Positions 6,678 to 48,439 of a DNA stretch of 64,000 bases are shown here, piece after piece. Source of the DNA: Octopus vulgaris. Its lineage: Eukaryota. Position 1 is the first letter of the stretch; every line of letters starts with the position of its first letter. The notes beneath the pieces are model-generated. The model was not told the DNA's origin. It worked only from the letters and a program-made list of their open reading frames with translations, and did not search any database. The stretch spans positions 13,888,001-13,952,000 of the forward strand of contig OX597829.1 of assembly GCA_951406725.2 (NCBI GenBank), written 5' to 3'. The position numbers and the translations under genes are program-made.

Positions 6678-9600
6678 TGTCAGGTCTCCGCTTGGAGCTA
6701 CTGGTAACATGTAACCCAGTACAACCTGTTACATGGTCGGGTCGTTGGCGACTAAACTGGCAACCCCACCAAGATTTCTTGGTGAGGAGGGTGATTTGGA
6801 CACCCAGCAGGACTAAAAACAAAACCTGTCAAAGGGCAGAGGAACTTTCTCATGAGTCAATGGCCATCCAAAATCCGGAGTGGAGTCCCTAAGGCGGTTG
6901 GATTGCGCCATGTGTGCCACCTTCCGGCAGCTCCTGCATCCTGGTCTACCCCCAGCCGTCTTGACTTTGTCTTGCCACTGGATCCGGCGCACCAGGACGA
7001 GAGAGTGAGGCTGATCCTGCGCAAGTCACCCTCACTATAATCCAAGTCACGCGCACGTCATGACATCATGACACCAACATCACACCAACATCACAAAGTC
7101 CTGTGGCGATGGGGAAACGGCGAAGTAGCAGGTGAGGATACACTGGGAGCTGCAGTCGTGAACCCACACACAGGCGGCTCAGGACATGTGGTCGCCCCTC
7201 ACTGAACTGAGGCAGCAGTGGAGTCCGGCAGCCTCCTGAGTGACCGAGCAGCCCTCTTCAGGATCGCTCTGCTCGCCTCCCCAGCATGAGGACGGGGCTA
7301 GAAAATGTTGCCCTAAACATAGCCTGCCTCACCTCACCCTGGTCAGCAAACCGCGGCTGGCGGGGATCCTTTCCAAACGGTCGAAACAAAGAAAGAAAAC
7401 AAACAAAGGTGCTCACTTTCGCAACTTGGAACGTGAGAACTCTGCTTGACAACACCGAAGCGGACAGACCAGAGAGACGAACTGCCCTGGTGGCCAGAGA
7501 ACTGAGCCGATACAATGTCGATATCGCAGCACTGAGCGAGACCCGCCTTGCGGACAAAGGCCAGCTGATAGAGACAGGCGACGGCTACACTTTCTTTTGG
7601 AGTGGTCGCAGCGGCGAAGAGCGTCGTGAGGCTGGTGTTGGTTTTGCCATCAAGTCAGTACACGTGCGGAAACTGGAAAGCTCCCCCGAGGGTATCAACG
7701 ATCGGCTGATGAAGATGCAGCTCCCACTTGGAAACAAGACTAGTGCGACCATCATCAGCGCTTACGCCTCCACCATGACCAACCCTGAAGAAGTTAAGGA
7801 CAGGTTCTATGAGCAACTCGACTTCCTCATCACGTCAGTCCAGCCTGGGAAGCTCATCCTCCTTGGGGATTTTAACGCCCGTGTCGGGACTGACCACCAA
7901 GCCTGGCATCGTGTGCTGGGAAAGCAAGGAATCGGAAAGTGCAACAACAACGGGCAGCTCCTCCTGCGTGCGTGTGCCTCTCATGATCTTACCATCGCCA
8001 ACACCTTGTTCCGTCTGCCAACACGCAACAAGACATCATGGATGCATCCACGCTCTAAACACTGGCATCTGATAGATTACGTCATCGTCAGGGCGAAAGA
8101 CAGGCGGGACGTGAGACTGGTCAAAGCCATGTGTGGAGCTGATTGCTGGACGGACCATCGCCTCATCATCTCCAGGATGGATTTCTACATCCGACCTAAA
8201 AGAAGACCACAGGGTCAGAAAGTGACGAGGAAGCTTAACATCACGAAATTAAAGAACCAGCTGACTGCACAAGATCTCCAGTCACGTATGGACAGCAAGC
8301 TGTTGGACATTCGGAATGACCAGTCCAGCATCGATGAGTAGTGGGAATCATTGAGGGACACGGTTCATTCCATCGCCCTTGAAATTCTAGGCCAAGTTAC
8401 GAGGAACCACCAGGACTGGTTCGACGAAAACGACCGGGAAATCCAAAAGCTCCTGGAAGAGAAACGCCGTCTGCTGCGGGCTCACCAAAATGACACCACC
8501 TGCACGGCAAAGAAGGCCGCTTTCAACAACATTCGCAGCACAGTCCAGGCAAAACTCCGCCTCATGCAAGACGCATGGTTAAACGCCAAGGCGGATGAGA
8601 TTCAGGGATACGCAGAAAAACACTACACCAAGAAATTCTACGAGGCGCTGAAAGCTGTCTATGGACGGCAATCCTCCTTTGGATCAACCCCCCTGCTCAG
8701 CTCGGATGGAACCTCACTCCTGACTAACAAGAAGCTGATCCTGGAGAGATGGGCGGAGCATTTCAACATCGTGCTCAACCGACCAGCCCAGATCAACGAG
8801 GAAGCCATCGCACGACTCCCCCAGGTGCCGACAAACCACGAGCTGGCTGTTCCCCCTGCAGTCGAGGAAGTGAGCAGAGCCATCAAAAAAATGTCCACCG
8901 GCAAAGCTCCAGGCTCTGACGCCATCCCTTCAGAGGTGTTCAAGTCGGGCGGCCCCACCATAATCAGTCAGCTCACCAGCCTGTTCCAGTCGATGTGGGA
9001 CAGGGAACAACTTCCTCAAGATTTCCGGGACGCAACAATCGTCCACATTTATAAGCGGAAAGGAGATCGGCAGTCCTGCGACAACCACCGAGGAATCTCC
9101 CTCTTGTCCATAGCAGGCAAGATCCTGGCCCGAGTCCTGCTTGACCGCCTTCTGGAACACTTGGAGCAAGGCCTTCTCCCTGAGAGCCAGTGTGGCTTCC
9201 GCGCGGGTCGAGGGACCACTGACATGATATTCGCCGCCCGTCAGCTCCAGGAGAAATGCATGGAGCAGCACCTTGACCTCTGCATGACCTTTGTTGACCT
9301 CACCAAGGCTTTCGATACAGTCAGTCGGGAGGGACTATGGAAGGTCATGGGAAAATTTGGTTGCCCCAGCAAATTTATTGCAATTGTCCGCCAGTTCCAC
9401 GATGGAATGACAGCCAGAGTCCTTGAGGACGGCAACTCATCTGAAGCCTTCCAGGTGACCAACGGAGTTAGGCAGGGCTGTGTCCAACACTGTTCAGCAT
9501 CATGTTCTCGGCAATGCTGTCCGACGCCTTCAAGGACTGCAAGTCCGGTATCGACATCAAGTACAGGACAGACGGGAAACTTTTCAACTCCAGAAGATTG

Positions 9601-10636
9601 CAGGCCGTCACAAAGGTAAGGGAGACAGTCGTCAGAGACTTCCTCTTTGCTGACGACTGCCCCCTTAATGCAATCGATGAGCAGGAGATGCAGCTCGGGA
9701 TGGACAGGTTCTCATCAGCCTGTGACAACTTCGGTCTCACCATCAGTGCCAAGAAAACCGAAGTGATGTTTCAGCCAGCACCCGGCAAACAATACCATGA
9801 GCCTCAGATAAAGGTGAACGGACGGATCCTACGAGCGGTGGAAAACTTCACCTACCTGGGCAGCACTCTCTCCTGCAATGCCAACATAGATGCTGAAATC
9901 TTCAAAAGAATCTCCAAGGCAAGCAGCGCGTTTGGGAAACTGCGAAAGAAAGTCTGGGAGCAGAGAGGAATCAGCCTCAACACCAAGCTGAAAGTCTACC
10001 GGGCAGTCGTGCTTACCACCCTACTATACGGCTGCGAGACGTGGACTGCTTACCGAAGGCACGAGCGCCAGATAAACCACTTCCACCTGAGGTGTCTTCG
10101 GAACCTCCTTCACATCCGCTGGCAGGACAAAGTCCCAGACACGGAAGTTCTGAAACAGGCAGATCTCCCTAGCACCATCACGATCATGCGCAAGGCCCAG
10201 CTGAGATGGGCGGGCCACGTCTCCCACATGTCCGACACTCGCATCCCAAAACAGCTCTTCTACGGTGAACTCAGCCAGGGCAAACGCAAAGTCGGAGGGC
10301 AGAAGAAGCGCTTCAAGGACAGTCTCAAAGTCTCTCACAAAGACTTCTCCATCGACACAGAGACTTGGGAGACACTTGCTGCCGACCGCTCATCCTGGCG
10401 TAGCGCAATCACCACAGGAGCAAAGACAGCCGAGGGGAGACGGATTCAGTCAGCAGAGCAGAAACGCCAGATGCGGAAAGCCAGAGCCACTTGCACCAAT
10501 AGCACAGCCCCTACCCACTTCTGCCCCACCTGTGGGAGGGGCTTCCAGCCTCACCAGCCACCTCCGGTCTCATAGCAGCAATTCCACCGAATGATGTCAA
10601 TGGTCATCTTCGAACCCGAAGGACGAACATCATCAT
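6678..10636 (+). mobile_element. Full-length RTE-clade (BovB-like) LINE
   Basis: ~600-bp structured 5'UTR, single APE-RT ORF, 3' end ttcgaacccgaaggacgaacatcatcat; flanked on both sides by (TATG)n. Confidence 0.95.
7286..10590 (+). pseudogene. RTE ORF: AP endonuclease + reverse transcriptase + C-terminal C2H2 finger, three visible lesions
   Basis: ATWNVRTL, LSETR, LGDFNAR, IDY, TDH (APE); RGISLL, QCGFR, FVDLTKAFD, GVRQG, FADD, FTYLGS (RT); CPTC..HLRSH. Stop at 8339-8341, frameshift near 9482, deletion near 10548. Confidence 0.93.
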
Positions 10637-18590: not shown

Positions 18591-21220
18591 ATGTTTATTT
18601 ATTAGCTACACAGGGGTGCACACAGACGGGACAGATTACAAACTAGAGCTTTTCTTTTTTGGGGAAAAAAAGTGGGGTAGGTTTTCGATCAAAAGGGATC
18701 GTAAAAGGGAAAGAAGAAAATAAAAAGAACAGAAAAAAGAGAAAGAACGATCAATAGGGATCGTGTATCACAGTATCATGATGTAAGGTGTAAAGGGGGA
18801 AGCAGATAAGTTTTATCCGTGGAAAGAAAAGACCACGGTAAACTCGGTCAATATTGTTATATGTTACCACATTTGTTTGCAAGTGGGTAACCCTCTGTTT
18901 TCAATTTCTGCGTTCATAGGATGATACTCAAGGTAGCTTCGTCATTCATATGTGCAATCCTTGCTACATTCACTCATCTTTTTTTAAACATTCGTTAGAC
19001 AAAACTTGCCTCTCTACTCTCATTTTCCTTTTCAAATGATACTTGAAGAAGTTGATGAGAGATTGATCAGAGAAAAAGTGTTTGTCTTCAATCCTTTCAG
19101 ACGCATTCACCAGATACATTCTTTCGCCATAGCCATAAGGATGATGAAAATAGCTCTTCCTTCCCGTTTGAAAGAAGGAGGCGTGACAATATTGACGATA
19201 GACTCGACTGATAAACCGACTCGTCCCACACGTGACAGCAGTTGTTCGACATAAGCCCTCAGGTCGGAGATTGTTGGACACTCCACGATTGCGTGCAGAA
19301 CGGTTTCGTCGCTCTGACCACATCTCGAGTAGGTCGGCTCCATGTTTCTCGAGCCATGATCTATGACTGCAGTTCGGTTATGGAGATGAGTTGCGCGAAA
19401 GCGTGCCTCACAAACGGCGATCACACCTGTTCACCGTCGTCTACGTAGAGCCTGAGATGTCGCAGTCTCAGCGCGTGTCTGCACATCATCAACCACGGCA
19501 TGCCCAGTCCTCCTTTTAACGGGTGTTGACAGCAAATGGATCGCCTGACCATCGGGACGCAGCCTTTCCACAAGAAGCGAAAGAGAATGCGTTCTAGTTT
19601 GGTGATGGTTGGGTTGAGACAAGGCACGACGGTCAGGCGGTAGTAGATGACGGACGCGATGTACGAGTTCGCCACCTCCGCCCGACCTTTTAGGGACAGT
19701 TTCCTCTCGGCCCATAGCCTGGTGAGAGTGAACACCCTACGCGTTATCTCGTTCCAGTTGGAGGTCCGGACCAAACCAACCCCGAGCAACTCGACCGGAC
19801 CGTCGGTCCAGCGACCCACGACGGAGGCGCTTCTGGACGACATGGCTTGTTTCTCCAGGTGCCTAGTCGCAAGCCCACTGATATTTTCCGGTTGATTTTC
19901 GCTCCTGTCACCGCTTCGTAGTTTTTCAGTGTATCGCCGACCTGCTCGATGTGCTCATGGCTAGACACTATGACGGTGACGTCGTCAGCGTATGCAGACA
20001 CGCTCATCCCGCATCCCAATTCTCGCGGGATGCCCCTCAGAGTTGTCAGCTTCCGCAATAATGGCTCGAGAGTCAATACGTAGAGAAGCTACGAGAGGGG
20101 GCATCCCTGACGGACCGAACGTGCGATGTCGAAGAGTCTCGATAGATGTCCATTTACGCGAATTACCGAACGGATGCCTCTGTACAAAGCGGCTGTTCAG
20201 CCGCGGAAGACTGGACCGAAACCAGCCGCTCTGAGGACAGCCTCCAATTATCGATGGTCTACCTTATCGAAAGCTTTCGATTGATCCAAATTGATCAGCG
20301 CCCCACCCATGCCAGGTTCCTTAACTACCCTGTCTCTGATGTAGCGCATCAGGTGGAGCTTGTCATGGATGGTCCGGCCCGGCACGGCGCACGTTTGCGC
20401 CTTGTCGACCAGTTTCTCGATGACAAGCGCCAACCTCTTGGCTAACACCTTGGCCAAAATTTTGAAGTCTGCATTAAGCAGAGTGATGGACCTAAAGTTA
20501 TCAATTACATCCAAACCCGGTGATTTGTCCCTCGAGCATTCTGCCATCGCGTCCTGCACTTCCGCCGCCGTGATGGCACCTTCGCAGAGCCCTGCCTCTC
20601 TTGTCGAAAGTCGTGGTAGGCTGTGTAGGTAGGTACTGAAGTTTATCCTACGTTTTTGCCCGCCACTCGTCCCGAACGGTCGGGCAAAATGCTGTTGAAA
20701 GGCCTCACACATTTTACTTGGTTCGAGCAATTCGCGCCCCTGTTCATCTACCAGAGACCGAATAGTGGCTTTGTTGCCCTGTTGCACCTCTGCCACCCGG
20801 GCCCCTCTAACAGCTCCAACACCTTCCTTCCTTAGAGCACGCATCCTAGCTCTGACAACACACCCTTCGTGTTTGGCGTTGAAGTGTTGGTCGAGGGCCA
20901 ACCTCGCCGCCAAAACGTCGGATGCGATGCCGCTTCTAATTGCCTCTTCTAGCTTCTTAACTAGCTCACCCTATACTCTATTTCTATCTATGGCTAGTGC
21001 TTCACTGTACCTAATCGCTTCTGCTTTTACTTCTCTTTTGGGGGCAAACCACCATTTGTTGTTGACGATGGCTCCTGTCAAAGCCCTCTTTACAAGTGTG
21101 CTAATCCGGTCTCTGAAAACCTGTCTCGATGGGAAAGACGCGTTTAGTATCCAGTATCCGGGACCCTGCCTATGTGTCTTACATAAGTCACAACCAATCT
21201 TGACCATAATCCTAGTGAAT
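18591..21220 (-). mobile_element. Tx1/L1-clade LINE ORF2 (RT + Cys finger) and 3'UTR, frameshifted
   Basis: KSPGLD, FRSITLLNADFKILAKVLAKRL, LDQSKAFDKVDH, AYADD, LSLKGR, FLWKG, GGLG, RCG..ETVLHAIVECP; AATAAA at 3' end. Confidence 0.9.
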
Positions 21221-22390
21221 TAGAATACAAGCGAAAGAAACAGAGTGTTACTTACTGCTCGAAAGTTTTGCTTTCTCCTCCTTTGGTTTGTCCTCCAGGA
21301 GATCCCAGTAAAGTTTCTTTGTGAGGTATTTTTGGCATTTACCAACCGCACTGGGGAAAATGCCTTTTACTGTGTGGTGCAGACTTCTGGAGATGTGTAA
21401 TATTTTGATGTGATCCGGTGGTGTTGTGTATGGGTGGTTGTTTGTTTTTATGTCATCTTCTGTTATGTTTGTTTTAGATTTGATGTATTCCATCAAATTT
21501 GTGTTTTTGGTGTCTATAGCTGTGAGCATGTTTGCTGTATATATTTTTGTGGTGTTGGTGTGGCTGTTGTTTTTGTTGGGTTTCGAAATGTCTTCGGGAG
21601 ATGTATTTCCCCCTGCTTTGTTTGTGTTTGCATTGGGTTTGGTTGTGTTTCTGCTCTTTATTTTCCTTCCTTTTCTAGCTATTTGCCATTCCTTGCTGGT
21701 TTCGTCTTCCGACGAATTTTCTGAGGAATGAGAAGTGGGTAGGGGCATGTTGTAGGCTTCTATGTATGTCTGCATGTGGTTGTGTTGTTGTTTTCGTTGC
21801 TGTTGGTTGTTGAGTGTTTGTGTGTGTTGAGTGCGGTATAGGGGATGGGGAATCAGTTTTGTATATATTTTTTTGTTTTTCTGTTCCTTTGGTTCTTGCT
21901 GTTGTTGGTGGTGTTGGTATTTTCTCAGGTGTTTTTTCAGGTGTTGCATTATTTTTGATTGGTGATTGATTCGCTTGGTGTGCTTCTCTTGTCGCCTTCT
22001 GTGTTGATGGTGGTGTGGGTAGTAGTGCTTTTTTCTCGGAGTGTTTTGGTTGTGGTAGTGGTTGTTGTTGTTGCTCTTGTTGTGCCGTGGTTGGACACTT
22101 CTTTTTCAAAAGTGTTTCGCCTCCGCACAAATAGCAACGTGGTCGCCTGCCCTCTACCACTACATAGAGTTTGTAGCCTTCTGGCAGTTCTATAGTGGTG
22201 GGTATCTTTTCTCTTGTTGCTTCCTCCAATTGAAGGAGGAATTGGATTGATTTTCCCACCCAGTTTTCTGTTCTAGAATAACGATTTCAAGAATGTGTGA
22301 CTCTGCCATTTCAAAGCAGATGGCAGAAACTAACCATTATATTTCGACTTCAGGTGGTACATTTTTAATTTGGACTTTTGTCACCCTCTA
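21221..22390 (-). mobile_element. Tx1-like ORF1 (gag-like, degenerate zinc knuckle), 5' truncated
   Basis: IPTTIELPEG.KLYVVVEGRRPRCYLCGGETLLKKKCP (CCHC knuckle with H>L); Q/T/K-rich linker with EWQ..RKGRK; frameshift. Confidence 0.7.
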
Positions 22391-29509: not shown

Positions 29510-29510
<1 letters not shown>

Positions 29511-30224
29511 TAATTTACATTATTTACAATTGAGGGATATTTGTCCTCATCTTGTTTATTGTTAACACAACGTTTCGGCTGATATACCCTCCAAGGTGTC
29601 TTGGGGTAATTTCTCATTTCTAAGGTATTTTCCGATGTTATTATTATTATTATTATTATTGAGTGAGAGAGCAATTCATGCCATCAAAGTGACACTGGGG
29701 TAAAATATATAAAGCCAAGTATACCCATCATGACTACCCGTCTGATAAAGGTACACTAGGCACATGCATCACAACCATGTATGCGCGACATGGTGATCTC
29801 ATATCAAGATGAACAGCACATGATCTTGCAGGTGGGGCCCAGTTAGAATTTTCTTCTGGTCGAGTAACCCATCCTGCTCAAAAAGTCCTTAAATAAGGAT
29901 TGTTTAAGGATGTTGAAAGAAACACCCATGTTTCCAGATGTGAATTATTCAAACCCCAAAGAATCCCTCTCAACACATGGCTATGATGCTCCCCCACTAC
30001 TTCTGCTCGTGATCAGAGATGCACATATCGTCAGCCACTAAGGGACATGCTCAACTGGTTAAGGTCAAACAACTGACAAGCAAATCTGTGGTATTCAGCA
30101 GAATATTTGCTGTAGCCCATCTTTTATTATTATTATTATTATTATTATTTAGGTCACTGCCTGGAATCGAACTCAGAATCTTGGTGTTAGTAGCTCGCGC
30201 TCTTAACCACTAAGCCATATGCCC
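29510..30224 (-). mobile_element. Composite tRNA-head + (TAA)n + hammerhead SINE-like element, interrupted by an insertion
   Basis: Head 30149-30224 (minus): GGGCATATGGCTTAGTGG...GAGTTCGATTCC; body 29510-29637 ends GACAC-CT(del)...CAGCC-GAA-AC-GT-T-GTGTT. Confidence 0.75.
29661..30124 (-). mobile_element. Non-coding element inserted in a (TAA)n tract
   Basis: ~460-bp block bounded on both sides by (TTA)n, splitting the composite SINE. Confidence 0.6.
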
Positions 30225-30272
30225 GGGGGTATGTGGCGCAGTGGTTATAATAATAATAATAATAATAATAAT

Positions 30273-30364
<92 letters not shown>

Positions 30365-30504
30365 TAATAATAATAATAAAGATAATGATGATGATAATAA
30401 TAATAATAACAACAACAACAACAACAACAACAACATAGAAAAATACCTTAAGAATGAGAACTCAGGTTCGAAATTTTCCCAAGACACCTGATGAAGGCTG
30501 GAGG
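30225..30504 (+). mobile_element. Inverted partial copy of the composite tRNA/(AAT)n/HHR element
   Basis: gggggtatgtggcgcagtggtta + expanded (AAT)n + catagaaaaataccttaagaatgagaa...GACAC-CTGATGA-A-GGCTG. Confidence 0.75.
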
Positions 30505-31341
30505 TTTACATTTGGGGTCGTACGTGAGAACCCCGTGATACCTATTGACTCATGTAATGAAAGCCAAAAGGCATGACATGGCCAAAAAAATGTTGCGATA
30601 CCTGAAGCACAATGGACAAACCGTCAAAATCTTTTCAGATGATAATATCTTAACCTTTGATGTTGTTTTCAAACGTCGTAATGATGGATACATTGCTAAG
30701 TGACCTTCTAAAGTTAAAGGCGTCTTTAAGACCAACCTCCTAGCTCAAGTCATGATACTGGGAGACGTGGCATCTGACGGAAAAAAGATGCCTCTCCATT
30801 TTTTTCAAGTCTGAAGAAAAGGTGAGGGCTGACGGTTATTATGAAGTCCAGCGGTATAAGGTTTTGCCTTAGCTGAAGTCTAAATACCAACGGTAATTAT
30901 GTGTGGACCCAAGATAGTTCTCCTGCTCATACGGCGAAGTAAGTGCAGAAATTCTGCGAAGATAATTTCGCCGATTTTTGGCATGTCAACTTCTAGCTTT
31001 CTTCCAGCCAAGACTTGAACTCCCTGGACTATGTCATATGGGTCAAATTGGAGCATTTTACCGATATAACTTCGCATCCCAGTCTTGATCATTTTAAGCA
31101 AACCCTGAAGGAAGAGTGAGACAACATGTTTGAGTACTTCATAATGAAGAGTTATGACGCCTTCAGCTGGTGTATGACGGTTGTGGTGGATAATGAAGGC
31201 AGGCATATTGAATAAATTCTCTCTTTATAACCCCAATATACTTGTTTTAAAACTATATTTATGTCAGGTTGCTGGTTGTTGAAATGTAAACAATTTCGTG
31301 AATTATGTATTATTTTCTAAGTTTTGCTTCCCCACCCTGTA
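30505..31341 (+). mobile_element. Tc1/mariner-superfamily transposase relic with right end
   Basis: VMILGDVASDGKKMPLHFF, QD..PAHTAK, PSSQDLNSLDY; terminus cccaccctg-TA. Confidence 0.8.
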
Positions 31342-31377
31342 AATATAAATATATATATATATATATATTTTTTTTTT

Positions 31378-45979: not shown

Positions 45980-48388
45980 CGTTTAAATATTTGTTGTGCA
46001 AGATTTTTTATGTGAAGTCGTGTGTTTAAACAGATATTGTTATATTTCGGAATGGTCATTTTGCCATTTCAGCCAATAAAAACACACGTACTATATATTT
46101 GGTGTTATTTTGCTTCAGTGTTATTTATTTTTTACATTAATCTTAATCTTATTTCGGCCAGAATTCTTTCGTCACACTCCTGTGACCGCATCAGTGGTCT
46201 TTTGCTTTCTTCTTTCTTATTTGTGTGTCTCTCCTTACTAACCGTCAGCCATTTTGTATTTCTATTGTATGTCTTCATTTGCGCATGCTTATATCTCTAT
46301 GTGCGTCTATGTTTATTTAGTGTGGGGGGGATGCCTGTAATATTTGTATCTTCTGTTTATATACGTTCATGTAATTTGTTTTTGTTGTTGTTGTTTTTGT
46401 TTATTCTTATTTTGTTCATGTGTTTACATTCACTTATTATTATCATTACATATGCTTGTATGTATGTATGTATAACAACAATACTAGTAATAATAATAAT
46501 AAATCGAGTCGAAAAAATATATATATATAGTTATTTATTTCTATTTGTTTATTTATCTGTGTATTTATTATGTTTTCGGGATCCTCTATCGTCATATGTT
46601 GTGGTGTGTGCTAGTGCTCCATTCTAGTTTCTATTCAGTTTTCTATTCAGGCTAGGTTTATTTTCTATTATGTGTGTAGCTTCTGTGTGATTGTTACATC
46701 TGTTCTATGTGTGGACAATATTTTAATTTCTATATTGTTGATTGATCCCCCGTGTTCCTGTTCGGCGTGTTGGTACAGAATCGATGAGCTTTTACCTTCC
46801 TTGAGTTGTCTCCAATGTACATTTACCCGCTCTCCTATGCTTCTTGCCGTTTCCCCTACGTATGTCGTTGTCTTGTTACTGCATCGTCCCTCTATATATC
46901 TTGTACTATAGACTACATTTCTGGCTTTACAGTTTGTTTGTGGGCCAAATCTACATACAGTACAGTACTTATCCGTACAGGGGGTTCTACTAAAAGGATG
47001 GGTTCTAACAATTATAGATTTGATAGGGTTCCCTGGCTTTTCAACAACCTTAATTCCTAGCTTAAGTTTGTCTAGGGTCCTTCTAAAGCGGTACGCCAGT
47101 TCACCTCCAGGGGTGGTGTCAACGAACATGACACTCTGGTATTTATGGCTATCATACCAAGAGTTGGTCTTCCGTATTTTCTTTTTGTCCTTTCTATAGT
47201 GTTCCATGACTTGTTCCTATAGAGTGGGCAAATCCCATTCCTATCATTACATAATATATTATCAAATTTCTTCATGGCTCCTTTGTATACTCTGATACTT
47301 TCTTTATGGCTGTAACCTGAGAACTGCATGCGGTGAATGAAATATTGTATGTGTCTCTTTAACTCTTTGGGCTCGCACATGCGTGACAGATTTTTCATTA
47401 TTCTGACGAGATCTGCCATCAAAATATTGAATTTGGCATTGTCCGCAATGACTGAGTTCCGGTGGATCAAGTATTTTGAAGCCATAGGTTTGGCATAGTA
47501 TGAATGAAGAATTTGGGTTTTATTATTCACAATTTCTAGCCAGAGTTCAGTGTCTAGTACTGGTAGTCTATTGTTGGGGTGTTTAGTGGGGTAATCTATT
47601 GTGACCTTAATACTCTAGTGGATGGAGTTAGCTATTTGCTGGATGCTCTCCATAGTATTAGTTTCTATTACTATATCAACATTACTCTCTTGTGGGGGTG
47701 CCTTTACCACTATGTTGATATCATCAACATAGCGAGAGTACATGTTTACGAGTATGGAGTTCTGTATTAGGCGTTCTTTAAGCCTTCTGTCCCACCATAC
47801 CATGAAAAGGTTGGCTACAACACCAGCGATACTAACGCTGATGGCTGCCCCCTCGTCCTGGGCATATATTTTGTTGTTAAACTTAAACGTGTGGCCTTTT
47901 ATATATATATATATTTTCGATTCGATTTATTATTATTATTACTAGTATTGTTGTTATACATACATACATACAAGCATATGTAATGATAATAATAAGTGGA
48001 TGTAAACACATGAACAAAATAAGAATAAACAAATACAACAACAACAAAAACAACTTACAGAAGATACAAATATTACAGGCATGCCCCCCCCCACACACAC
48101 ACACACTAAATAAACATAGACGCACATAGAGATATAAGCATGCGCAAATGAAGACATACAATAGAAATACAAAATGGCTGACGGTTAGTAAGGAGAGACA
48201 CAAATAAGAAAGAAGAAAACAAAGGAGCACTGATGCGGTCACAGGAGTGTGACGAAAGAACTCTGGCCGAAATAAGATTAAGATTAATGTAAGAAATAAA
48301 TAACACTGAAGCAAAATAACACCAAATATATAGTGCGTGTGTTTTTATTGGCTGAACTGGCAAAATGACCATTCCGAAATATAACAAC

Positions 48389-48390
<2 letters not shown>
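45980..48390 (-). mobile_element. Penelope-like element, 3' half, with 3' pLTR and inverted 5' pLTR
   Basis: SRYVDDINI, HSYYAKPMAS, RMQFSGY, NVVYS..YVGETARSIGER (46668-47890); 46035-46520 is the reverse complement of ~47905-48390; HHRs at 46156-46199 (-) and 48225-48268 (+). Confidence 0.92.

Positions 48391-48439
<49 letters not shown>

Follow-up and report, generated by a model that had tools for sequence, protein, structure and literature searches.

The 64,000 nucleotides of Octopus vulgaris DNA analysed here (the window) contain, at 29510-30504, a tRNA-like head, an (AAT)n tract and parts of a hammerhead ribozyme, and raise the question of what kind of element holds these three together. 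The sequence-only reading took the locus for a separate non-autonomous SINE, transcribed by Pol III and self-cleaving, which would use a Penelope RT/endonuclease in trans. According to our analysis it is probably a dead, head-to-head pair of pseudo-LTRs (pLTRs) of an autonomous Penelope/Poseidon element with a tRNA-derived head, the latter likely serving as an internal Pol III promoter.

The left arm of the pair is on the minus strand. Its head, with the A and B boxes that had been noticed from the letters, occupies 30151-30224 (A box 30207-30217, B box 30163-30174) and is followed by the (AAT)n tract, which is present as one portion 5′ (30126-30150) and one portion 3′ (29640-29660) of a foreign insertion at 29661-30125, also on the minus strand. 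This insertion is a 5′-truncated copy of an unrelated ~580-bp repeat, does not belong to the element, and with its ~465 bp makes up about half of the interval. The body (29510-29639) is the 5′ end of a Penelope ORF with a damaged hammerhead, and terminates (~29510) at a short, tail-less 3′ end. The hammerhead remnant (29564-29600) keeps both strands of stem I, the 3′ strand of stem II, the GAAA and a palindromic helix III, with the 3′ half of the ribozyme at 29564-29581; it lacks 9 nt including most of the CUGAUGA, and another 12 nt are deleted further 5′ of this lost core. The body ending in a hammerhead, as first described, therefore stands for the 3′ half of the ribozyme and falls for its core and for 29661-30125, which is foreign repeat and not body.

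The second, partial copy that had been reported on the plus strand is the right arm, head-to-head with the left. It consists of a head remnant (30227-30247) with only the A box (30234-30244) and the remainder deleted, an (AAT)n/(AAC)n tract of ~185 nt (30248-30431), and the 5′ part of a body (30432-30504), in which the start codon of the ORF lies at 30454 and a hammerhead is represented by its 5′ half at 30483-30504. The break of this arm inside loop II has removed its 3′ end together with any target duplication. With no complete ribozyme on either arm, the locus is dead. Intact hammerheads are common in other copies of the family. ARAGORN and Rfam called no tRNA or hammerhead either at the locus or in the near-consensus copy L034.

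Several unrelated sequences surround or interrupt such copies. Directly after the broken right arm, at 30540-31345 (+), lies a decayed transposase fragment that we take to be Tc1/mariner-like, and it may be related to the truncation of that arm. The ~580-bp repeat has a fixed 5′ start and an (AAT)n 3′ end, targets AAT, is very abundant and is without an Rfam match; it was common in random genome samples, mostly within (AAT)n tracts, and besides the window (29661-30125) was seen in loci L045 (1630-2215), L054, L069, L238 and L246. It is possibly the non-autonomous partner of an AAT-targeting LINE. Two other loci (L039 and L131) carry the 3′ ends of another retroelement, presumably similar to Dong/R4, inserted in the AAT tract.

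Beyond this locus, head and body are linked at the fixed order and orientation for which the first reading had asked: when loci were selected by their head only, the body followed downstream, on the strand of the head, in 27 of 29. A sample of sixty 10-kb stretches at even spacing (599,800 bases) from the 2.8-Gb genome contained 10 sites of the family, corresponding to ~47,000 genome-wide (95% range 22,000-86,000), and one of the ten retained the ORF interior. Compared with nine genomic tRNA genes, the head showed 39-48 identities and 60-66% identity to the best; the highest-scoring match was tRNA-Arg (Arg-TCG 46/73, Arg-TCT 48/73, z 7.6-8.3), with 47/72 identities to tRNA-Ala, and since this comparison covered six amino acids only, a tRNA-Arg parent is tentative. 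Common head variation falls at CpG sites, except at two non-CpG positions, and the A and B boxes are intact in the head consensus. One locus (L217, 1-3072) has seven tRNA-Cys-like genes clustered within 3 kb.

The family consensus also bears out a minimal type I hammerhead of the Penelope type. Its stems I and II have 5 bp each, the latter closed by G-C; it carries CUGAUGA, an extra A and GAAA, and its helix III is palindromic. It thus shows the extra nucleotide after A9, the G10.1-C11.1 pair and the helix III palindrome that define this type in the part of PMC4209133 covered. In the core, one non-CpG variant alone is common, and it falls at position 7, a free one (36 of about 170). The lowest-energy fold of the monomer (-13.6) keeps stems I and II and mispairs the core, the hammerhead fold being at -12.2, so that folding gives no sign of activity. 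The helix III palindrome (29569-29574) reaches six bases, pairing A14 with the cleavage-site U, and to judge from these letters dimers could get caught by it in an inactive fold. Just 5′ of stem I, inside the ORF, the body consensus has a run of pyrimidines that ends in AG (window 30473-30483). For D. virilis Penelope, which has an intron in its 5′ UTR, the intron end is described at this place (PMC4209133, in part), and no joint matching a pyrimidine-AG intron end was found among the assembled contigs of the presumed RNA runs.

The sequences to both sides of these copies reveal a coding parent. At one random locus (L099), the end of an RT-GIY-YIG ORF is directly upstream of the head; in loci picked by the ORF end, the ORF continued into a clear head in 27 of 30 and into the first ~10 nt of the head, followed by the AAT tract, in the other three. 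When 30 loci were selected by the stretch of ORF that immediately follows the tail, 26 had body or tail upstream. The body supplies the first codons of the ORF, with the hammerhead inside them; the order head-tract-body-ORF is seen in L179/L272 and L288, and L288 translates from the ATG in the body through the hammerhead. ORF end and head are also bridged by contigs from runs labelled organisms B, C and D. Since the ORF runs into the head and the body runs into the ORF, the head-(AAT)n-hammerhead sequence is the pLTR of an autonomous element and not, as first proposed, a non-autonomous SINE of its own. The parent unit is head, (AAT)n, ORF (834 aa), a 3′ UTR of ~25 nt, and head again.

The consensus ORF is open for its 834 aa, and copies are 94% identical (median). 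The longest natural open frame found (569 aa) contains RVT_1, just under the Pfam cut-off (E 2.7e-6), gave no GIY-YIG Pfam match, and shares 36% identity with an Anolis protein across 544 aa. The match to P0114 is collinear through the endonuclease region. The homologs are PLE proteins carrying PF00078/PF28514/PF26215; relatives P0001-P0011 have 60-72% protein identity, and in P0004 the peptide that the hammerhead encodes recurs close to the N terminus. As in Penelope/Poseidon PLEs, a single ORF encodes an RT together with, at the C terminus, a GIY-YIG-type endonuclease (EN), the pLTRs are both direct and inverted and contain the ORF start, and the CxxC linker between RT and EN is absent from the consensus and from the L242 frames. 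A Zn-finger-like linker of this kind marks Neptune/Nematis in the covered part of PMC8557442. The element is accordingly placed in the Penelope/Poseidon clade by the domain order of its predicted protein and by the missing linker. Searching with a distant PLE protein for a second Poseidon family returned only the focal family (30/30 loci).

The window holds another PLE at ~46,060-48,400 (-), which was considered as a partner of the short copies and rejected: its hammerhead is different, it has no match to the body, and the A+B pattern occurs in 0/30 of its 3′ regions vs 8/30 in the focal family. This second family is younger (copies ~97% alike), contains a CxxC linker and thus appears Neptune/Nematis-like, and carries an inverted pLTR (47920-48400) as well as, near 46190, a hammerhead of its own. 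Long retroelement-like coding fragments were also observed at 7244-10572 (+), presumably RTE-like, and at 19400-22300 (-).

The ends of the copies tell how they were probably made. Two 3′ end forms exist, ~36 nt apart. Among the 31 head-to-head pairs that came from 118 loci, one arm was long (tailed) and the other short in every case (P 5e-10 against 50:50), two of the short calls (L019 and L060) being near the score threshold. The family thus has the 30-40-nt tail on one end only that is typical of Penelope/Poseidon elements; a one-sided tail is described as a PLE signature (PMC8557442, PMC3846280 and PMC11167929, each in part) and in PAc has been linked to two internal RT start sites (PMC11167929). 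Flanking direct repeats of 8-15 nt were found in 16/31 pairs vs 5% in mismatched pairs, with two pairs unscorable and many repeats merging with the short end through AAT. Target-site duplications of ~10 nt, likewise typical of Penelope/Poseidon, are therefore present in the family, and any at the focal locus has been lost. The inverted layout is indeed the Penelope hallmark it was suspected to be, and tails and duplications together support a Penelope RT/endonuclease as the likely mobiliser.

Self-cleavage, a feature of the first proposal, does not define the copies. The predicted cut is spanned by 94 of 111 body matches; no match begins within 3 nt of it, and three stop there. Cleavage by the ribozyme is thus not what fixes the ends of the copies. 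The insertion of PAc, which nicks at ATT, is likewise described to proceed without need for hammerhead cleavage (PMC11167929, in part). As to whether the inverted arm comes about by fold-back or from two templates, the signs are mixed: the two arms of a pair share non-consensus variants above chance (6/23 vs 1.8, P 0.003), but most pairs differ, and several inverted arms are not mirrors of the junction. Whatever the polymerase, the model in which PLE reverse transcription has two start sites can be tested cleanly in vivo on these tens of thousands of copies, with their one tail per inverted pair.

We propose that the RNA would start at about tRNA position +1 of the head, fixing the 5′ boundary, with Pol III as the simplest polymerase. 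The element's own protein would bind just downstream of the hammerhead and nick AT-rich DNA, and reverse transcription would be primed, after the model of the anole PAc, at either of two internal positions separated by ~36 nt; with one priming site used per arm, one end would carry the tail and the other would lack it. When priming takes place in the 5′ or a solo pLTR, the cDNA would run out at the head, so that the same source elements could give rise, through their uncleaved RNA and in cis or in trans, to short, SINE-like copies. The ribozyme would be inherited coding sequence of the parent, unneeded for making the short copies.

Two observations bear on the polymerase. On the one hand, among 58 heads extending as far as the start, 50 end in the interval -12..+4 around tRNA +1, as do 4 of 5 in the random set at the head start, whereas ORF truncation points spread over more than a kilobase. 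Three of the six full-length 5′ ends that reach the head start stop there (one by eye) and three enter the previous unit; together with the eight of 58 heads that continue upstream, these indicate that read-through or tandem templates also exist. On the other hand, four or more T terminate transcription by metazoan Pol III, and TTTT is absent from the head, the body and the whole sense strand of the 2,538-nt consensus, which has 13 TTT runs and 29 AAAA runs (P 0.010 with a mononucleotide null, 0.030 with a synonymous-codon null and 0.086 with a Markov null). The second PLE family of the window, equal in length and T content, has five TTTT, and natural copies contain 0.37 TTTT per kb in the focal family vs 2.06 in this control, a comparison of one family against one other. 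The pile-up at the head start and the TTTT-free sense strand point to Pol III transcription and are suggestive only. The assembled contigs of the presumed RNA runs, which do not resolve starts, strand or level, revealed no pile-up of ends. A and B boxes by themselves are no proof of Pol III use (PMC3531059, in part).

It is a tentative thought, and a doubtful one, that an autonomous coding element may have given up its Pol II promoter in favour of a Pol III promoter of tRNA origin and purged TTTT from its whole 2.6-kb sense strand, with Pol III making both the full-length template and the solo SINE-like RNA, that is, a LINE-SINE pair in one element. If true, this would be a direct route for the birth of SINEs from a Penelope pLTR; if Pol III reads the ORF, it also has to be asked how an uncapped RNA gets translated and what the embedded hammerhead does.

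Alternatively, the head could be a passive relic, a tRNA-SINE head captured once into a pLTR that is transcribed by Pol II, with RT stalling or folding back at the head start. We regard this as rather unlikely, even if some templates do read through the head and an uncapped Pol III RNA would be a poor mRNA. A small hairpin is present at the head start and could be an RT stop or fold-back site rather than a start site; the Drosophila Penelope pLTR is described with an Inr/DPE-type internal promoter (PMC2377424, in part), and palindromes at the 5′ ends of pLTRs and inverted junctions are known (PMC3846280, in part). However, this hairpin has merely a 5-bp stem and a 2-nt loop, and the boundary coincides with tRNA +1, where Pol III would be expected to start. 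A relic would also fit poorly with a head that varies mostly at CpG and keeps its consensus boxes intact, and with the lack of TTTT in the sense strand. A head in use as a promoter thus remains our preferred reading.

The short copies might, as an improbable second alternative, form an independent Pol III SINE lineage that descends from its own solo masters, with Penelope protein acting in trans and its ribozyme doing the processing. Nine of ten random sites are without ORF interior, and pLTR sequences are reported to suffice for mobilisation in trans (PMC3846280, in part). SINEBase asks for interspersed sequences under 1 kb in 100 or more copies, with 60% or more tRNA identity over 60 nt, and the solo copies have all of these. 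It also asks for a non-autonomous family distinct from its partner and dependent on a LINE RT, and here the copies fail, because their whole sequence is the pLTR of an autonomous PLE and haplotypes are shared: two linked variant haplotypes are common to 53 ORF-linked and 59 solo heads. A variant at head position 33 is commoner in solos (19/57 vs 1/52 ORF-linked), an excess expected from the picking of solos with the focal copy, which carries the variant. No clear solo-only subfamily was found among the 59 solo vs 53 ORF-linked heads, a weak test given that solos were mostly picked by their likeness to the focal copy. Copy ends that ignore the cut site and the lack of head-to-tail arrays of the short unit in the loci examined also speak against such a lineage. 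The short copies therefore behave like a SINE without being one as a separate family, and are best read as pLTRs of the autonomous element. That an unrelated tRNA-SINE and a Penelope fragment met by chance in an AAT microsatellite is scarcely credible: AAT tracts here do attract unrelated insertions, but the head-body linkage (27/29) and the 53 heads directly linked to the ORF refute it.

Full-text searches of the literature found no published description of a tRNA head in a PLE pLTR, and PMC13282606 names no such family in the parts covered. Autonomous retrotransposons are viewed as Pol II-transcribed and SINEs as separate Pol III parasites (PMC3531059 and PMC10886601, in part). A tRNA head in Penelope's own terminal repeat blurs this line between autonomous element and SINE and would illustrate how pLTRs can give rise to SINE-like families. 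Such pLTR ends are also easily mislabelled as SINEs by repeat annotators. Octopus tRNA retroposons are said to have been described by Ohshima and Okada in 1994, and the sequence may already be catalogued under another label there or in Dfam, Repbase or deposited repeat libraries.

The known systems are compared below from the covered parts of the sources cited. Like Anolis PAc (PMC11167929), Adineta Pen2a (PMC3846280) and D. virilis Penelope (PMC2377424), the octopus element has a single RT-GIY-YIG ORF (~835 aa), pLTRs with the ORF start and a minimal hammerhead, and an inverted 5′ pLTR; with Penelope/Poseidon PLEs in general it shares the 30-40-nt tail at one end, the ~10-nt target duplications and, in the proposed mechanism, an uncleaved RNA template. 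Unlike these three, whose promoters are described as Inr/DPE or TATA/Inr-type in the same papers, it has a pLTR that opens with an A/B-box head resembling a tRNA, and an (AAT)n tract. As in tRNA-derived SINEs (PMC3531059), the copies are short, dispersed and present in tens of thousands, with a head 60% or more identical to tRNA; in contrast to them, the 3′ part is the start of a Penelope ORF rather than a LINE tail, and the sequence doubles as the terminal repeat of an autonomous element.

A type I hammerhead in a short repeat is also found in Schistosoma Sm-alpha/Sj-alpha and in animal non-LTR retrozymes (PMC6765202, PMC7761336). Sm-alpha appears to be transcribed by Pol III, and retrozymes have been proposed to derive from pLTRs (PMC6765202 and PMC7761336, both reviews; preprint 10.64898/2026.07.22.740005). 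Those repeats are tandem, ribozyme-processed and described as non-coding, whereas octopus copies are dispersed or inverted, span the cut and have a coding parent attached; in place of head-to-tail monomers bounded by cleavage, the octopus pairs are head-to-head. Non-autonomous Chlamys PLEs such as MRC1 are similarly short PLE derivatives sharing their 3′ ends with autonomous families (PMC8557442), but MRC1 belongs to a different clade and is without canonical hammerheads, and a tRNA head is unmentioned for it in the part of that paper covered. Finally, the TRIMp3 elements Cassandra, Helenus and Ajax (PMC10886601) likewise carry a small-RNA-derived Pol III promoter, putative in our case, inside a retrotransposon terminal repeat. 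TRIMp3 are non-autonomous LTR elements with true LTRs, a PBS and a PPT, and their autonomous partners have been argued to need Pol II and to be unlikely to share the LTR (PMC10886601). In octopus, by contrast, the interior is a PLE ORF, the ends are tailed pLTRs, and the head is carried by the autonomous element.
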